From an uncultured Nitrospiraceae bacterium (GTDB taxonomy: Bacteria > Nitrospirota > Thermodesulfovibrionia > Thermodesulfovibrionales > Dissulfurispiraceae), in contig CAVPIW010000005.1 in assembly GCA_963705105.1 (NCBI GenBank), positions 384,001-448,000 of the forward strand: 64,000 nucleotides of DNA. The letters are read 5' to 3'. A program made the position numbers and the translations under genes. Shown piece by piece: positions 33,509 through 41,497 of the stretch (position 1 is the first letter of the stretch; each line of letters opens with the position of its first letter). The notes below the pieces were generated by a model that was given only the letters and a program-made list of their open reading frames with translations, made no database searches and was not told the DNA's origin.

Positions 33509-33607
33509 TGTCATTCCCGCGCAGGCGGGAATCCAGGTTTTTTGAGACCTTTCTTGATGCCCGCTCCCCGCCTACCGCCTGCGGGGACAAGTTCCGCGGG
33601 CATGACG
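33509..33607. repeat. REP-like palindromic element (GTCATTCCCGCGCAGGCGGGAATC type)
   Basis: GTCATTCCCGC...GCGGGCATGAC ends with an internal ATTCCC-N8-GGGAAT hairpin; related to 60648-60731. Confidence 0.7.
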
Positions 33608-33913
33608 GCTTTCACGAGGGGAAGCCGATTCCGAGGTTGTAGTCATTACTCCGGCCCGTTCTCTCACCCGCTTTTGTAACCTTTCACATTTGTAATGCTA
33701 AAGAAAGGGTGCCGCAATCTTCGTCAGCGATAATTATGACATCAAAGAAGTCTGAAGGCGACGCGTCAGGTATTGTCATCAACGGGCCTTGGCGTGCAGC
33801 GGCTTTGAAGGAGGAGAATGCGTGCGACTGCGAGGCCGCTCGCATTCCAGCCTGGGCAGGGCGTTGGGCTGCGAGTGCCCGGCAGGCCTGCTGCCTCGCC
33901 GGGAAGAGGAAGG

Positions 33914-34102
33914 ATGAGCGGGGGCATGAAGCTATTGAGCAAAAAGGAGAGCAAGAGAAGGTTCAGGAAGAAGAGCCCATCTCAGATGAAGAAGCTCCTT
34001 CAGCTAATCCAGAAAGTAAAAGTTCAGCTTGTACGGACAATCGTGGGGGCAGTCAACATATTTGTCATGGCGAAACTCTTTGGTGAACGTTGGACTCTGT
34101 AA
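33914..34102 (+). CDS. Possible small Lys/Arg-rich protein
   Basis: ATG after GAGGAAGG; 62 aa; no recognisable family. Confidence 0.3.
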   Translation: MSGGMKLLSKKESKRRFRKKSPSQMKKLLQLIQKVKVQLVRTIVGAVNIFVMAKLFGERWTL

Positions 34103-34360
34103 GCCCTTTATCAGAGATTTCGGTCTTGGATTGCCGGACGTCAGAATACCATCTTTAGCCGCAGCGTACTGCGGTTTTCGAAACAAAGATTTTCGCCAGC
34201 GCCTTCCGCATTTGCGTCGGAGATAACACACTCGCTGAATGCCATTACATGCACTTTTCTGCTCTGCATTGCAGTGGATTCAAGGCGGTGTTTCTTCGAA
34301 GCATAGCCAGTTTGGACTCTTGTGTTGTCTGTTCAAAGACTTCGCTGTTGTTGAAATCGG

Positions 34361-34377
34361 CAGGCATCGTGTTTGCA
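34361..34377 (+). promoter_or_regulatory. Putative sigma54 promoter of the hydrogenase operon
   Basis: CAGGCATCGTGTTTGCA = GG-N10-GC, about 50 nt upstream of the riboswitch. Confidence 0.65.
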
Positions 34378-34423
34378 AATGAGAGACATGAAACGGTCTC
34401 ACAGACACTGAGGCCTTCGATTG

Positions 34424-34512
34424 CTCTTTGATAAAAGCAAACTATCCGTAAGGGTAGGACGCAAAGCCATGGGTCCTTGCAATGAGTTAAGGATCGCCAG
34501 GTTGCCGGAGAC
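34424..34512 (+). ncRNA. GEMM-I (c-di-GMP-I class) riboswitch, A20 variant predicted to prefer cyclic AMP-GMP
   Basis: A-GCAAA-CUAUCC-GUAA-GGGUAG-GACGCAAAGCC...GGUCCU...AGGAUCGCCAGGUUGCCG matches the GEMM-I architecture with a GNRA loop. Confidence 0.88.
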
Positions 34513-34620
34513 GACACTTTGTAGTTCCGTATCTTCAGCCGCATTTCCCAGCGCTTATTCTCCTCACGCGAACAGGCTTTTTTCGCTCGCATCGAGGCTC
34601 CTTAAGGGACGGCCTTTGCC

Positions 34621-34685
34621 AGACTGGTCCTGACAAAAGCAAACGACCCGTCAGGGTCAGTGATCGCCAGGTTGCCCGACGGTCT
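34621..34685 (+). ncRNA. Second, internally deleted GEMM-I aptamer
   Basis: AAAAGCAAA-CGACCC-GUCA-GGGUC then directly GAUCGCCAGGUUGCC; lacks GACGCAAAGCC and the 5' strand of P3. Confidence 0.7.
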
Positions 34686-34977
34686 CACTCTCACTACTAC
34701 GTCGTCTTTCTCTCACTCTTTCTTAATCTCAAATCGCACAACAGCACTATTTTGTCGAAAGCGCAGCATGAGGGGTTTCTCCTCCGGCACTCCCTTGCCC
34801 GATGAAACCGGTCGGGCAAGAGAAAAGAGATGAGACACAAAGAGGCGGCGATTGCGGCATTCTGCTGTGCCCCCGCAGAGTTCTAAACCGACAAATAATG
34901 ACTAAGGGAGGGATGCGAAGGCGAAAGGTGAACTCAGGAACTGTGTAGAACTATCCGACTATTTTAGGGAGGTTTTT

Positions 34978-35874
34978 ATGAGTATCTCTCGACGTGATTT
35001 TTTGAGATTCTGCGGTCTGTCCGCAGCGGCTGTGGGCTTGTCCGCAACCGATCTAATCCGCTTGGAAGAGGCCCTGGCCAGTCCGACCGCGCCTTCAATC
35101 ATCTGGCTGCAGGGCAGCGGTTGTACCGGGTGTTCCGAATCCTTTCTCAATCTGATATCCGCTTCCGGCCCGCAGACGGCTGCCGACGTATTGATCAATT
35201 CCGTCAATCTGGTTTATCACCCGACCCTCATGGCCCTGGCGGGGCAGGATGCGGTCGCCCAGGCCGTGGCGGCCTACGAAAAGGGCGGGTATCTTCTGGT
35301 TGTGGAAGGCGGCGTTCCGACCGCCTTCGGCGGTAGGGCCTGCTATGCCTGGACGTATAATGAACAGGAGTTCACCTTTGAAGAAACCGTCCTCGGCTTG
35401 GCTGCCAAGGCCGCCGGAATACTGTGCATAGGAACCTGCGCCGCTTGGGGAGGCATCCCTGCGGCTCCGCCCAACCCCGCCGGTGTCGTCGGAGTCAAGG
35501 CATTGACCGGCAGGGACACCATCAACATTCCGGGGTGCCCCACCCATCCCGACTGGATCGCCTGGACCGTGGTGCAACTGTTAACGAATACCCCTATCTC
35601 GGTTGACGGTGACGGACGGCCCACCCAGTTCTTCAGCGCCACCGTCCATGAACTGTGTCCCCGCCGCGGAGGAACGATAGCAACCGACACCATCGGTGTG
35701 GACGGCGCCTGCCTGATGGCTTTGGGCTGCCGTGGTCCGTTTACCATGTCCAATTGTCCCCAACAGAAATGGAATAACCAGGCCAACTGGTGTATCGATG
35801 CGAACGCACCCTGCATCGGATGCACCGAGCCCGGATTTCCGGGGACGGATCCCTTTTATTCCCCCGGTATTTAA
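34978..35874 (+). CDS. Periplasmic [NiFe] hydrogenase small subunit
   Basis: Tat signal SRRDFL; GCTGC, GTC, PGCP, HxxC, LGCRGP, NWC...CIGC; no C-terminal TM anchor. Confidence 0.96.
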   Translation: MSISRRDFLRFCGLSAAAVGLSATDLIRLEEALASPTAPSIIWLQGSGCTGCSESFLNLISASGPQTAADVLINSVNLVYHPTLMALAGQDAVAQAVAAYEKGGYLLVVEGGVPTAFGGRACYAWTYNEQEFTFEETVLGLAAKAAGILCIGTCAAWGGIPAAPPNPAGVVGVKALTGRDTINIPGCPTHPDWIAWTVVQLLTNTPISVDGDGRPTQFFSATVHELCPRRGGTIATDTIGVDGACLMALGCRGPFTMSNCPQQKWNNQANWCIDANAPCIGCTEPGFPGTDPFYSPGI

Positions 35875-35895
35875 ATCGTTTAAGGAGGCACATCT

Positions 35896-37329
35896 ATGTC
35901 AACCAAAATATTCATAGATCCCGTAACACGCCTGGAAGGACATCTCAAGATAGCGGTTACGGTCAATGAAGTGCAGGGGCAGCAACAAGTCATCAATGCC
36001 CGGGCGACCGGGACCCTGTTCCGCGGGTTTGAGGAATTGCTGGTCGGCCGTGACCCCGGAGATGCCCAGCATCTGACCCAGCGGATTTGCGGCGTTTGTC
36101 CGGTGCCCCATGGGATGGCCTCGGTCATGGCCCAGGACGCGGCCTACGGGGTGCGCGTGCCCTCGAATGCCCGCATCATGCGCAACCTGGTCATCGGCGC
36201 CAATTTCATCCAGTCCCATATCCTTCATTTTTACCATCTGACCGCCCTGGATTACGTGGAAGGACCGAACATGCCGCCCTGGCAGCCCTCCTGGAAAACA
36301 GACAAGCGCATCTCCGGAGCGGCGGCCACCAGCTTGATAGACCATTATGTGACAGCCATCGACATGACCCGCAAGGCCCATGAGATGGGCGCCCTTTTCG
36401 GGGGGCGCATGCCACACCCGCCCACCTACGTCGCCGGAGGTTTTACGGCCACGCCCCGGGCCGACCGAATCGCCAACTTCACCTCCTACCTCAACGAGTT
36501 GATCCCCTTTATCCAGAACGTCTATCTGCCCGATGTGGCCGCCCTGAGAGCGGCCTACCCGGATTATGACGCCATCGGCAGGGGCTACGGCAACCTGCTT
36601 TCCTTTGGGGTCTTCAATCAGGATTCTACGGGAAACAGGCTCTTGAGGCGGGGCCGATCGGAGAACGGCGCCACTTCCGTGCTGTCGGTCGACACGAATC
36701 AGATCAGGGAGTCGGTGCGCTATTCCTGGTATGAAGATTCCACAACCAATCTGAATCCCGCTTCGGGGCAGACACTGCCGCAAAACCCCAAAGCCAAGGC
36801 CTATTCCTGGCTCAAGGCCCCCCGCTATGGCGGTGCGCCTTATGAAGTAGGCCCACTGGCCCGGATGTGGGTCAACGGAGACTATCGACGGGGGATTTCC
36901 GTCATGGACCGACACCAGGCCCGGGCCCAGGAAACGCTGAAGATAGCGCAGGCCATGCGGTCCTGGGTGTCTCAGCTTCGGCCGGATGGAGCGGTGTACA
37001 CCAAACCGACGATTCCACCCTCTGCGTCCGGCGTGGGTCTCACCGAGGCGCCCCGAGGCGCCCTGGGGCATTGGTTCCGAATGGATGCGGGCAAGATTTC
37101 GAGCTATCAGGTCATTACCCCGACCTGCTGGAACGCCTCTCCCGAGGACGACGCCAGTCAGATGGGTCCCGTCGAAAACGCCCTGATCGGCACGCCGGTC
37201 AAGAACTTAGCGGAACCCATCGAGGTCCTGCGGGTCATTCATTCCTTCGACCCCTGCCTCGCATGCGCCGTCCATGTTTCCCGGCCCAAAGAACAGGCCC
37301 AAATCCGGATCGTTGCCGGTTATCGGTAA
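35896..37329 (+). CDS. [NiFe] hydrogenase large subunit (group 1a-like)
   Basis: DPVTRLEGH; L1 QRICGVCPVPH; EAPRG; L2 SFDPCLACAVH followed by a cleavable tail. Confidence 0.97.
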   Translation: MSTKIFIDPVTRLEGHLKIAVTVNEVQGQQQVINARATGTLFRGFEELLVGRDPGDAQHLTQRICGVCPVPHGMASVMAQDAAYGVRVPSNARIMRNLVIGANFIQSHILHFYHLTALDYVEGPNMPPWQPSWKTDKRISGAAATSLIDHYVTAIDMTRKAHEMGALFGGRMPHPPTYVAGGFTATPRADRIANFTSYLNELIPFIQNVYLPDVAALRAAYPDYDAIGRGYGNLLSFGVFNQDSTGNRLLRRGRSENGATSVLSVDTNQIRESVRYSWYEDSTTNLNPASGQTLPQNPKAKAYSWLKAPRYGGAPYEVGPLARMWVNGDYRRGISVMDRHQARAQETLKIAQAMRSWVSQLRPDGAVYTKPTIPPSASGVGLTEAPRGALGHWFRMDAGKISSYQVITPTCWNASPEDDASQMGPVENALIGTPVKNLAEPIEVLRVIHSFDPCLACAVHVSRPKEQAQIRIVAGYR

Positions 37330-37362
37330 ACCTGGAAGAAGGTTGTTCTACGGAAAATCAAA

Positions 37363-37956
37363 GTGAAGAAACAATCAAACAGAGCCGGGAGGATTGTTGA
37401 GCCAAGGCCGAGGATCCTTATCGCCGGGATGGGAAATATCCTGCTCCGGGACGACGGCGTCGGCGTTCATGCCGTACAGGGTTTTCCCCCGGCCGAGAAT
37501 CAGGAATACCGGGTTGTCGAGGTCGGCTGTGCGGTGTTTGACACTCTGGACCATTTTGACTGGGCGGAAAGGATCCTGCTCATCGATGCCATGCAGGCCG
37601 GGAGGGCGCCCGGGACCGTTTATCGTGTCGACAGTTTAACGGATATGGATGCTGGAACCATGGCAGCCTCTCTCCATGAGTTTTCGGTGATCCAGGCCCT
37701 CGGAATGATTCAAAAAGATCCCATGCCGGCCGTTACGATCATCGGCGTCGAACCGGAGGTCATCGACTATGGTCTGGAGCTTTCCGGTACAGTGGCCGCT
37801 TCCCTCCCCCTGGTCTGGGAAACCGGCCGCCAAATTATCGAGGACTGGATCAGGAACTGTCACGTCCAGGACCCGATGCCATTCCAGGAGAACGTCAACT
37901 GCCCGTGTCGGATATCAGCGAAAGTTGACTCTCCCATCCACCTGGAACAACTATGA
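37363..37956 (+). CDS. Hydrogenase maturation protease
   Basis: GMGNILLRDDGVGV, IDA, SLH, GVEP. Confidence 0.93.
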   Translation: MKKQSNRAGRIVEPRPRILIAGMGNILLRDDGVGVHAVQGFPPAENQEYRVVEVGCAVFDTLDHFDWAERILLIDAMQAGRAPGTVYRVDSLTDMDAGTMAASLHEFSVIQALGMIQKDPMPAVTIIGVEPEVIDYGLELSGTVAASLPLVWETGRQIIEDWIRNCHVQDPMPFQENVNCPCRISAKVDSPIHLEQL

Positions 37957-37979
37957 ATACCAGCTTAAGGAGAACCAAT

Positions 37980-40349
37980 ATGAGAATTTCCAAAATAACC
38001 ATCCCCTTGATTAGTCTGGCGGCCGTGCTGCTGATCTCCAGCCACGTATTCGGAGTCAGTTCCTATACCACCTCGTTTAACGCCCGGTATGGGACGGCCG
38101 CCGGCACGGCTCTGGGTGCCAATAGTAGCGCTCGCTGCATCCTTTGCCATCCCGGTGGGAATACCAGCCAGTACACTTCCTATGCCAACGATTTCAGGAA
38201 CAACAATCACAATTATGCGACCATCGAACCGTTGGATTCGGACGGAGACGGCTTTTCCAATTTAGCCGAGATCACCGCTCTGACCCTCCCCTATGACGCC
38301 AACAGCCGTCCAACGACCAGTGCTGACACCACCCTGCCGGTGGTCTCGACCTTTACCGTCCCGGCCACGGCCACAACCCTGACCGTACCGATCTCCGCCC
38401 TGACCGCTACCGACAACGTGGGCGTGACCGGCTACCTGGTCAACGAAAGCGCCACCAAGCCTGCGGCCGGCAACTGGCCCGCTGCGGCCCCCACCAGCTA
38501 TACCTTTACCACCGCCGGGGCCAAAACCCTCTACGCCTGGGCAAGGGATGCCGCCGGCAACGTCTCCAACAGCCTGAGCCGGCCCGTGACCGTCACCCTG
38601 CCTCCGACGGCTGACACCACCCTGCCGGTGGTCTCGACCTTTACCGTCCCTACCACGGCCACAACCCTGACCGTACCGATCTCCGCCCTGACCGCTACCG
38701 ACAACGTGGGCGTGACCGGCTACCTGGTCAACGAAAGCGCCACCAAGCCTGCGGCCGGCAACTGGCCCGCTGCGGCCCCCACCAGCTATACCTTTACCAC
38801 CGCCGGGACCAAAACCCTCTACGCCTGGGCAAGGGATGCCGCCGGCAATGTCTCCAACGCCCTGAGCCGGCCCGTGACCGTCACCCTGCCTCCGACGGCT
38901 GACACCACCCTGCCGGTGGTCTCGACCTTTACCGTCCCTACCACGGCCACAACCCTGACCGTACCGATCTCCGCCCTGACCGCTACCGACAACGTGGGCG
39001 TGACCGGCTACCTGGTCAACGAAAGCGCCACCAAGCCTGCGGCCGGTAACTGGCCCGCTGCGGCCCCCACCAGCTATACCTTTACCACCGCCGGGACCAA
39101 AACCCTCTACGCCTGGGCAAGGGATGCCGCCGGCAATGTCTCCAACAGCCTGAGCCGGCCCGTGACCGTCACCCTGCCTCCGACGGCTGATACCACCCTG
39201 CCGGTGGTCTCGACCTTTACCATCCCGGCCACGGCCACTACCCTGACCGTACCGATCTCCGCCCTGACCGCTACCGACAACGTGGGCGTGACCGGCTACC
39301 TGGTCAACGAAAGCGCCACCAAGCCTGCGGCCGGCAACTGGCCCGCTGCGGCCCCCACCAGCTATACCTTTACCACCGCCGGGGCCAAAACCCTCTACGC
39401 TGGCAGGGATGCCGCCGGCAATGTCTCCAACGCCCTGAGCCGGTCCGTGACCGTTACTTCCGGCGACAGCGGCGGGGTCGATGTGGAATCTCCCGAGGTC
39501 ATGGAATTTACCTTGCCCCTGACCGGCACTTCTCTCACCGTGCCGATCATGGCCTTCCGGGCCATTGATAACATCAGCCCGACCGCTTATCTGATCACTA
39601 CCACCCCGACAGCGCCGTCGGCAAGCGATCCAGGCTGGAGAGCCACCCCGCCGACCAGCTACACCTTTACCTCCGCGGGCGCCAAAACACTGTACGGGTG
39701 GGCTAAGGATGCCGCCGGCAACGTCTCGGAAAGTGTTTGGGACAACGTGGGCATCACCGCACCGCCCCAGACAACTTCGTACACGCTGAGCGTGTCCAGA
39801 GCGGGAACAGGCTCTGGCACCGTGACGAGCGCCCCAGCCGGCGTGAGCTGTGGCACTGACTGCTCCCAGACCTATGCAGCAGGGACCCAAGTGAGCCTCA
39901 CCGCTGCGGCGTCGCCCGGTTCTGTTTTCTCCGGCTGGTCCGGGGCTTGCACAGGACCAGGGACCTGCACGGTGACGTTGAGCGCCGCCCGCTCGGTGAC
40001 GGCGACCTTCAACACCGCGCCGGCGGGATCGGCGCCTAACATTTCCGCTCCGTCCTCCTACAGCTTTGGGGAGACGCATTTGGACTCCACAAGCAGTCGC
40101 ACCATTGTGGTCAGCAACACCGGCTCGACCACGCTCCGGGTGACGGGTATTACGAAGAGCGGTACCGACGCCGGGATGTTCACAGTAGGGGTCAGCTCCT
40201 TCACTGTTGCGCCTGGAGGGACCTACAACCTCCCGGTAACCTTTAGACCAACCTCCGAAGGCACGAAGAACGCGACCCTGAGGCTCTCCACGAACGATCC
40301 TGACACAGCGGTCTGGCAGATCAGTCTGTCCGGCAGGGGAGAGGATTAG
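37980..40349 (+). CDS. Secreted putative monoheme c-type protein with tandem Ig-like repeats
   Basis: AAGGAG SD; signal peptide; CILCH (38136-38150); DSDGDGFSN; five beta-rich repeats; InlB-B-like and ASH/choice-of-anchor-D-like C-terminal domains; alternative start at 37953. Confidence 0.85.
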   Translation: MRISKITIPLISLAAVLLISSHVFGVSSYTTSFNARYGTAAGTALGANSSARCILCHPGGNTSQYTSYANDFRNNNHNYATIEPLDSDGDGFSNLAEITALTLPYDANSRPTTSADTTLPVVSTFTVPATATTLTVPISALTATDNVGVTGYLVNESATKPAAGNWPAAAPTSYTFTTAGAKTLYAWARDAAGNVSNSLSRPVTVTLPPTADTTLPVVSTFTVPTTATTLTVPISALTATDNVGVTGYLVNESATKPAAGNWPAAAPTSYTFTTAGTKTLYAWARDAAGNVSNALSRPVTVTLPPTADTTLPVVSTFTVPTTATTLTVPISALTATDNVGVTGYLVNESATKPAAGNWPAAAPTSYTFTTAGTKTLYAWARDAAGNVSNSLSRPVTVTLPPTADTTLPVVSTFTIPATATTLTVPISALTATDNVGVTGYLVNESATKPAAGNWPAAAPTSYTFTTAGAKTLYAGRDAAGNVSNALSRSVTVTSGDSGGVDVESPEVMEFTLPLTGTSLTVPIMAFRAIDNISPTAYLITTTPTAPSASDPGWRATPPTSYTFTSAGAKTLYGWAKDAAGNVSESVWDNVGITAPPQTTSYTLSVSRAGTGSGTVTSAPAGVSCGTDCSQTYAAGTQVSLTAAASPGSVFSGWSGACTGPGTCTVTLSAARSVTATFNTAPAGSAPNISAPSSYSFGETHLDSTSSRTIVVSNTGSTTLRVTGITKSGTDAGMFTVGVSSFTVAPGGTYNLPVTFRPTSEGTKNATLRLSTNDPDTAVWQISLSGRGED
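38322..39456 (+). repeat. Intragenic 288-bp (96 aa) tandem repeat x4, near identical
   Basis: Units start at 38322, 38610, 38898 and 39186; a fifth diverged unit follows. Confidence 0.97.
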
Positions 40350-40406
40350 TTCAGTCAAACCGCGTTTTTTCTGCGGGGCGGCCGTCTGATCCTTATGCCG
40401 GCTCAC

Positions 40407-40449
40407 AGGCGGGCGGAGAGAGACACCCTCTCTCCACCCGCCTCTTTTT
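40407..40449 (+). terminator. Intrinsic terminator of the hydrogenase operon
   Basis: AGGCGGGCGGAGAGAG-loop-CTCTCTCCACCCGCCT followed by CTTTTT. Confidence 0.8.
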
Positions 40450-40602: not shown

Positions 40603-41425
40603 CTATTTCTTAAAGTACTCCGGGGTGCCGGTGGCCGTCATTTTTGAAGGCCTGTTTGCTCACTTTTAAACGGTGGACCCGGACTCCAGGTCTTTCGCCG
40701 TTCAGCCCGTGCCTGGCATGACCTTGCTGTAATCATACTGGTCGCCGTGGCAGGATGCGCAGGTGTCCTTCGCAACGACGGTTTTGATCTTCTTGCCCTT
40801 GTGAGGCATACTGCAATCATACAACACGGACCTCATTGTTGAAATTTGCTTCACTGGATGTACTCCTGGTATTGCTGGTGGTGTTTGCCTGAGTCGTAGT
40901 AGCCCGTCTTCTTTGCCAAGTCATCGAGGATGAAGATGCACTACAGGTCACCCGTGTATTCCTTTCGAAAGGGTAATCCCGTACGCCGGTGGCATGCCAT
41001 CTTCGGGTAGCAGGTCCCGTCATCCCAGGCTTGAAATCCCGATTCTGGTGCGCGGGAAAGTACGAGCCGCTGCCCTCGCAGGCCACTGTTAGTGTTGTCG
41101 ACATGGGAAGGCCGCAGGGGTCGCTGGACGAGCCAGCAGACCGTGCCTGGGCTGACGACCTCGGCTCCGGGTCCGTGGCAGGCCTCGCAGCCCGTGTTCT
41201 CTTCGATCCACGTTGCCTTCTGTACTTTCATCGCGGCGTCATCTCCATAAGACGCTATCCCGGGCGTGAGGTGAGGCACATGAAGTCCCAGTCGTTCTTC
41301 AGGGAGTTTTCCCATTTGCCCGACACCCGGTTGAACTGCTTGTCCATGAACTGGTGATTTCCCGTCTCGTCGTTCTTCACAAGATAACGCTGCTTCCAGA
41401 ATGAGCCGACGACATAGACGATGGG
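40603..41425 (-). pseudogene. Fragmented multiheme cytochrome c gene
   Basis: Collinear fragments in shifting frames: YVVGSFWKQRY, DWDFMCLT, GCEACHGPG, KHHQQYQEY, broken CxxCH-MPH, CASCHG, MPGTG*, GTPEYFKK*. Confidence 0.8.
40605..40644. repeat. Right copy of the 40-bp imperfect direct repeat
   Basis: ATTTCTTAAAGTACTCCGGGGTGCCGGTGGCCGTCATTTT. Confidence 0.85.
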
Positions 41426-41497
41426 GATTTTTCTTTTTCAGGACATGGCGGCAGACAAACCTTATCATTGCAATAGGACATCCGAAAAGGCAAAGGC

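Follow-up and report, generated by a model that had tools for sequence, protein, structure and literature searches.

We examined a 64,000-nucleotide (nt) stretch of contig CAVPIW010000005.1 (positions 384,001 to 448,000; contig C5 in our numbering), hereafter the window, from the 4.2-megabase, 99% complete genome of an uncultured Nitrospiraceae bacterium (GCA_963705105.1), and within it a four-gene hydrogenase operon. The gene order, signals and domains of this operon were observed together with one intact A20 aptamer of the GEMM-I class in its leader, a pairing of hydrogenase and secreted haem/immunoglobulin-like (Ig) gene that recurs at other loci, and the tail of the haem/Ig protein fused to a related hydrogenase small subunit. 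We tentatively propose, with somewhat less than even confidence, that the operon encodes a surface or extracellular unit for the exchange of H2 and electrons, in which an anchor-free group 1a enzyme would work with a stalked haem protein under a sigma54- and aptamer-switched promoter and leader.

The hydrogenase, its secreted haem partner and their recurrence

The genes that a first-pass annotation of the window had listed, namely a small subunit exported by the twin-arginine translocation (Tat) pathway, a large subunit, a protease and a secreted CxxCH/Ig gene, were all borne out (Table 1). So was its statement that neither a cytochrome b nor a transmembrane (TM) anchor is encoded: no cytochrome b gene was found in the operon, and the small subunit lacks a TM helix at its C terminus. 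Group 1a enzymes need no cytochrome b, and because this is normal for the group and none of the 81 small subunits of our related set had a C-terminal TM helix, the missing cytochrome b is unremarkable. HybA and HybB queries over the 81 loci returned no HybB and one HybA-like match; HyaC-type cytochrome b was not among the queries. The large subunit matched Desulfovibrio-type [NiFeSe] enzymes in the PDB with an E-value of 8e-131, the first [NiFe] match following at 3.5e-97, and its NF033181 score of 598.8 lay just under the cut-off of 600. Its L2 motif, DPCLAC, has a Cys codon in place of selenocysteine, which places it outside the [NiFeSe] subtype proper. The L1 and L2 nickel motifs, the closeness to the [NiFeSe] family and the unanchored Tat small subunit with its iron-sulfur (FeS) ligands agree with what we take to be the marks of group 1a. 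On this sequence closeness, rather than through the HydDB classifier, we assign the large subunit as a probable Cys version of the [NiFeSe] family within group 1a.

The last gene encodes a secreted protein of 789 amino acids with one CxxCH motif, five Ig repeats, an InlB B-repeat domain and an ASH domain, and its mature part has no TM helix. It had been described as overlapping the protease gene, which holds from the first in-frame ATG (37953) but not from the start supported by a ribosome-binding site (37980), which lies 23 nt past the protease stop. Secreted CxxCH domains related to the small helical head make up a family of 746 clusters, and no characterised member was found among them. Within the 150 best relatives CxxCH was kept in 148, the DSDGDG loop was near-invariant and no distal His or Met was conserved; the search query held the CxxCH, which favours matches carrying the motif. 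With a conserved CxxCH, Sec export and maturation genes in the host, the head is predicted to be a monohaem c-type domain. Temptin_C (PF24784) matched 47 of 85 aligned head relatives and the atlas neighbours of the head scored 0.90-0.91; the window head itself gave no PF24784 match, and the bacterial members seen here carry CxxCH; no account of their function was found. We consider the head Temptin_C-like on the strength of these relatives. Fold searches with the head model gave no match in Foldseek and a best Z of 2.6 in VIA, which does not show a new fold. The repeats matched FN3/PKD modules (Z 8.9, root-mean-square deviation 3.0, 88 residues aligned), and at typical FN3 size the stalk would be 25-30 nm long.

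Three members of the head family (P0121-P0123) carried four to seven tandem CxxCH/DSDGDG heads, which may be an unrecognised type of multihaem chain, and 14 pattern matches to sorting-signal-like tails were observed among 146 members. C-termini ending in an acidic tail, with D or E at two of the final three positions, were observed on 27 of 81 small subunits (L007-L086), one of 81 large subunits and one of 67 proteases. Such tails were present in 35 of 120 repeat-family proteins too, and they are a possible export or surface-binding signal.

Of 80 genome loci, five had the same haem/Ig gene directly 3' of the hydrogenase operon. Among 78 metagenome loci, of which 49 have 1 kb of downstream sequence and 44 have enough upstream DNA for GEMM-I, it lay directly downstream in five and upstream in one more. 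Most of the pairing loci grouped in one clade with the window enzyme in trees built with FastTree (the split locus L038 was left out). A full-length match above 50% identity was found in only 1 of 60 host relatives and the nearest sequences were deltaproteobacterial (79-84% identity); lateral acquisition of the cassette is therefore likely. On a separate branch, metagenome locus L194 had a G20 GEMM-I, a terminator, both hydrogenase subunits and an overlapping haem gene, which encodes the same head, one repeat and eight additional CxxCH, a nine-haem version of the protein.

A second module was observed in the host genome itself (G000:C16:7824-12128, L133), with a sigma54-like TGGCAC-N5-TTGTA site, a G20 GEMM-I that is 78% like the window's and has a plausible terminator, group 1b subunits, and a haem/InlB/ASH gene directly after the large subunit. 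A neighbouring gene, convergent with it and apparently frameshifted, encodes the same head together with CHRD-like repeats. The third hydrogenase operon of the genome (C10, membrane-type Hyb) had no such site, no GEMM-I and no haem gene. A related small subunit, P0268 (51% identical), was fused to the repeat of the window protein (57% identical) and an ASH domain. The L194 locus, the C16 module and the P0268 fusion go beyond shared descent.

Fusions were not limited to this tail. C-terminal CxxCH motifs (one, two or four) were observed on 17 of the 81 small subunits, window included in the set (L016, L018, L019, L022, L023, L034, L050, L051, L053, L055, L057-L059, L065, L073, L075, L079), and Big_6 was fused to the small subunit in L048 and P0270-P0273. 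A large signal-peptide protein lay 3' of the operon in 19 of 80 loci, with Ig, BACON, LVIVD, CARDB or LamG domains or ten haems, the decahaem neighbours being at L071 and L080; this count comes from a reading of neighbour lists, with 28 neighbours scanned against Pfam and no other hydrogenase clade as control. The tat genes adjoin the operons of L048, L055 and L084. Planctomycete and verrucomicrobial/lentisphaeran operons were followed, often with overlap, by large secreted DUF2271, LVIVD, LamG or CARDB proteins without haem motifs (L029, L042-L044, L054, L061, L067, L070, L074, L082).

Leader, riboswitch and ligand source

The GG-N10-GC promoter of the first-pass annotation was present at 34362-34377. 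Alone it is a weak match, with three mismatches to what we take to be the sigma54 consensus and 1,194 sites in the genome that were equal or better. Sigma54-like sites were found upstream on the sense strand in 25 of 71 related loci versus 2 of 71 on the antisense strand (ad hoc weights), and in four of the five genome loci that share this gene order; this sense-strand excess supports the call. RpoN and 21 enhancer-binding-protein motifs were found in the host genome. The leader of about 590 nt, reaching to the ATG at 34978, was also confirmed.

Two GEMM-I aptamers had been proposed in this leader, and one of them stands. The first scored above the RF01051 gathering threshold of 35 bits, kept P1-P3 and the conserved contacts, and was the sole A20 among six GEMM-I matches in the host genome. 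The GGC-variant label (RF03167), Rfam's best, was rejected. Under the GEMM-I position numbering that we assume (20, 47, 92), and with the name c-di-GMP-I-GGC presumably referring to G at position 47, the Rfam alignment has A at that position (34463), so we read the aptamer as an A20/A47/C92 GEMM-I. The second copy keeps its 5' strand, P2 and 3' end, and about 32 nt are deleted, with which the A47 contact and the P3 5' strand are lost; it gave no Rfam match up to E=5 and scored 18.8 bits, against 79.3 for the intact copy, in a model of our own. The long hairpin further downstream had no further copy in the host genome.

The base at position 20, A or G, sets the ligand preference of GEMM-I aptamers (PMC9481103), and a preference for cyclic GMP-AMP (cGAMP), or a mixed one, is predicted for the window aptamer. 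Mixed specificity is plausible because an A20 aptamer of Desulfobacca, whose sibling aptamers are G20, acquired binding of cGAMP and kept most of its cyclic di-GMP (c-di-GMP) binding (PMC9481103). A Hypr GGDEF enzyme, which the first-pass annotation had advised looking for in the genome, was represented by one candidate. Ten of the 11 GGDEF proteins of the host have Asp at the Hypr position and one has Ser, a TM-HAMP-GGDDF protein on contig C8 (G000:C8:45792-47183, L134; NDRYGYARGS aligned to canonical GHAAGD), whose Geobacter homologue (37%) also has Ser. Under the Ser rule for Hypr cyclases (PMC6456294) this protein is a candidate cGAMP synthase. GSU1937, which contributes to cGAMP in G. sulfurreducens (PMC8835794), has the same TM-HAMP-GGDEF-type architecture, a likeness of architecture and not of direct sequence comparison. 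A CD-NTase was rejected as the cGAMP source, because SMODS matched nothing in this genome, which is 99% complete.

Ahead of the same enzyme type, GEMM-I was observed in five Desulfuromonadia loci, the four complete ones being A20; in the cultured Geobacter hydrogenophilus DSM 13691 (L057) the A20 aptamer precedes a small subunit with fused CxxCH. Because GEMM-I is scattered over the related loci, cyclic-dinucleotide control was gained or lost several times and is not core, and the riboswitch appears to be a lineage-specific add-on outside the conserved part of the module. Away from hydrogenases, GEMM-I was found near head genes in none of 21 Nitrospirota-sample loci and none of 22 Desulfobacterota loci. 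Near-identical G20 GEMM-I leaders were observed in the host genome at C6:895006 and C9:210804, ahead of similar secreted proteins of about 260 amino acids.

Host genome and coordinates of the locus

RpoB of the host was 77-78% identical to that of two Nitrospirota genomes and 58-59% identical to that of one Geobacter and one Syntrophorhabdaceae genome, while a fifth genome gave no match; since the Nitrospirota were closest the host is placed in this phylum. Sequence searches found dsrA, a motif of acetyl-CoA synthase and two proteins with the CcsA motif; the host is a sulfate-reducing bacterium. Two GspD secretins above the cut-off and 30 open reading frames with at least three CxxCH were also found.

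An outside short-read run, which may be the source sample, was identical over 33900-34620 and gave a single contig spanning 36605-38330; it had no coverage at 34640-34787, over part of the decayed aptamer region. Its contig for the repeats was collapsed (depth 22.4 versus about 7), and the fourth Ig repeat is not resolvable from it. Three single bases are absent from short homopolymers in this fourth repeat (39397-39405), with the frame restored, and a long-read error is likely.

The coordinates of the operon features are collected in Table 1. The terminator that had been placed after the last gene was found by hairpin folding; a consensus terminator scan missed it. Around the operon, a palindromic intergenic repeat of about 105 nt (33509-33612) recurs in the genome in some 20 diverged copies, about 40 copies exist of a 33-nt repeat near 41458-41491, and a fragmented cytochrome c554-like gene remnant lies on the minus strand at 40620-41468, convergent on the operon terminator.

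Table 1. Coordinates of the operon and leader features, numbered from the first letter of the window.
Position	Strand	Feature	Basis
34362-34377	+	sigma54-type -24/-12 promoter, AGGCAT-N5-TTGCA	sequence match
34427-34510	+	intact GEMM-I aptamer; A20 (34436), G21-C46, A47 (34463)	RF01051 68.8 bits, RF03167 63.5 bits
34500-34540	+	alternative helix, competing with the aptamer 3' strand	predicted by folding
34629-34679	+	decayed aptamer duplicate, predicted non-binding	pairwise alignment, repeats D7/D13
34700-34850	+	long leader hairpin with C/U-rich 5' arm	-54.2 kcal/mol, z -3.1
34978-35874	+	[NiFe] hydrogenase small subunit, 298 amino acids; twin-arginine signal SRRDFL, FeS ligands	TIGR00391, TIGR01409, PF14720
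35896-37329	+	large subunit, 477 amino acids, group 1a-type; QRICGVCPVPH ... DPCLAC	PDB matches, NF033181
37363-37956	+	hydrogenase maturation protease	PF01750, TIGR00072
37980-38054	+	Sec-type signal peptide of the accessory protein	sequence, hydropathy
38055-38318	+	small helical head, 88 amino acids; CILCH (38136-38150), DSDGDG-type calcium loop (38235)	relatives, model pLDDT 87.8
38325-39760	+	five Ig/FN3-like repeats of about 96 amino acids, predicted stalk	four near-identical 288-nt copies plus fifth
39777-40020	+	divergent InlB B-repeat domain	PF18998
40032-40349	+	C-terminal ASH / choice-of-anchor D domain	PF15780, NF012200
40407-40449	+	intrinsic terminator	-30.9 kcal/mol hairpin + U5

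Known systems, competing readings and significance

The closest structures are those of the Desulfovibrio HysAB-type group 1a enzymes (PDB 5jsu, 1cc1), which share the Tat small subunit, the absence of a TM anchor and of cytochrome b, and the protease gene. The window operon differs in having Cys for selenocysteine, the stalked haem protein as next gene and the GEMM-I leader, and its relatives differ in the haems or Ig domains fused to the small subunit. The nearest parallel in function is the MIC-island MicH/FohAB of corrosive Methanococcus maripaludis, a Tat-exported unanchored dimer on a mobile cassette, with adjacent tat genes as in some relatives of the window operon; that system differs in being archaeal, without outer membrane or haem partner and with a proposed glycan anchoring (PMC7848899, PMC11452385). 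The evidence of corrosion belongs to the methanogen system.

On the side of control, the Geobacter GEMM-Ib cGAMP regulon (pgcA, omcAHG, pilMNOP; GacA, GSU1937) likewise has A20 aptamers ahead of secreted haem proteins, and the host has a Ser-type cyclase of GSU1937 architecture; the window differs in its Nitrospirota host, its G21-C46 aptamer type and its single A20 copy (PMC6456294, PMC8835794). The word 'hydrogenase' does not occur in the main text of either paper. The cluster-3 A20 aptamer of Desulfobacca acetoxidans is alike in being a single G-to-A change among the c-di-GMP aptamers of one genome, but its binding was measured, with cGAMP improved and c-di-GMP slightly weaker (PMC9481103), whereas the window aptamer is read from its sequence. 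We found no GEMM-I-controlled hydrogenase and no haem- or Ig-fused small subunits in the literature covered, which takes in little of the subscription literature; the supplements of the 2015 PNAS work on cGAMP may list a Geobacter hydrogenase as a riboswitch target. The idea of a new module put forward in the first-pass annotation holds for the pairing, which recurs and has a second example in the genome, but not for two aptamers or a conserved riboswitch control. The link of hydrogenases to secreted haem/Ig modules appears broader than first noted, and the riboswitch layer narrower.

In the mechanism that we propose, one transcript would run from about 34388 to 40449, and cGAMP from the TM-HAMP-GGDDF cyclase, or c-di-GMP, would raise read-through of the leader in attached growth. 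The matured dimer would exit by Tat and the accessory protein by Sec, the latter then gaining haem c, and both would cross the outer membrane by type II secretion. At the distal FeS cluster the haem head would substitute for cytochrome c3, and the repeat/InlB/ASH tail of about 25-30 nm would hold this head in the envelope or matrix. Net flow would most likely be H2 oxidation towards surface cytochromes or a solid or cellular acceptor, and the reverse, with H2 made from a reduced surface, may be possible.

Several observations weigh against this surface unit, and many of them favour an ordinary periplasmic group 1a uptake enzyme, in no need of a cytochrome b and served by soluble multihaem cytochromes, with the last gene a co-regulated surface protein that has in common with it a sigma54/GEMM leader for attachment but no electrons. 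The head domain is mostly unlinked to hydrogenases (0 of 20 matches in other Nitrospirota genomes and 1 of 30 in Desulfobacterota lay near one), 61 of the 80 related loci have no large secreted neighbour, and GEMM-I precedes secreted InlB-repeat genes in 6 of 30 loci of these phyla and a hydrogenase within 1.5 kb in none of the 30 top-scoring Desulfobacterota loci. Group 1a is listed as periplasmic in Table 1 of the HydDB paper (PMC5037454). The conserved loci form one related clade and so represent few independent events. As for the switch, the pairing expected by synteny recurs, and one independent locus (L194, 1 of 78 metagenome loci) has GEMM-I, but none of the five genome loci of the same gene order does. 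Sigma54 sites just upstream of GEMM-I are common (10 of 23 pattern-found aptamers; 30 loci examined). Folding of the leader found no strong intrinsic terminator after the first aptamer and no clear expression platform; with the second aptamer decayed as well, the switch may be dying, or it may act by other means. An unconnected surface protein nevertheless seems unlikely to us, since within one genome the link is seen for two groups of hydrogenase, and again on the L194 branch, and since small subunit P0268 carries the same tail as a fusion and haems are fused to small subunits of the related set.

The haem itself raises further doubts. A single haem cannot conduct along a 25-nm stalk, and a pure electron carrier would not usually have a head in which no distal His or Met is conserved. 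An alternative is a periplasmic enzyme with the accessory protein as tethered shuttle, its stalk allowing the haem to swing from the hydrogenase to cytochromes of the membrane or outer membrane. The estimated stalk length would be about the width of the periplasm, the window small subunit has no surface tail of its own, and many periplasmic multihaem proteins are present in the host, but Ig/InlB/ASH, BACON, LVIVD, CARDB and TSP3 are domains that outside-facing proteins typically have and some family members carry the sorting-signal-like tails described above, and we regard a shuttle as quite unlikely. The accessory protein could instead be a scaffold or adhesin for a secreted hydrogenase, with a five-coordinate haem that binds gas or guards against O2 or NO. 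The lack of a conserved sixth ligand, the Temptin_C/calcium-loop family, the lack of CxxCH in 10 of the 19 secreted neighbours and the parallel to the anchoring proposed for methanogen FohAB (PMC11452385) agree with a scaffold; the nine CxxCH of the L194 version and the decahaem neighbours of L071 and L080 speak against it and indicate redox wiring, and we take a scaffold to be improbable, the least probable of the readings weighed here.

Extended from the window operon to its relatives, the surface reading becomes more doubtful. It is possible that a widespread, horizontally moving group 1a clade works outside the cell as a surface H2-to-haem relay, which several lineages, that of the Nitrospirota host included, would independently have placed under cGAMP or c-di-GMP riboswitches, and, with the same reserve, that its haems and Ig stalks come either as fusions to the small subunit or from the gene that follows, and that its partners in electron exchange are minerals, metal or cells.

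Exported bacterial uptake hydrogenases are taken as periplasmic. If the surface reading is true, haem-wired hydrogenases would stand at the surface of sediment sulfate reducers, Geobacteraceae, planctomycetes and acidobacteria, and would be the bacterial equivalent of the corrosion hydrogenase of methanogens. Both Nitrospirota and H2 metabolism would then be added to the reach of cGAMP signalling, and genomes would be read differently for the use of H2 at mineral, metal and cell interfaces, which bears on syntrophy and corrosion.

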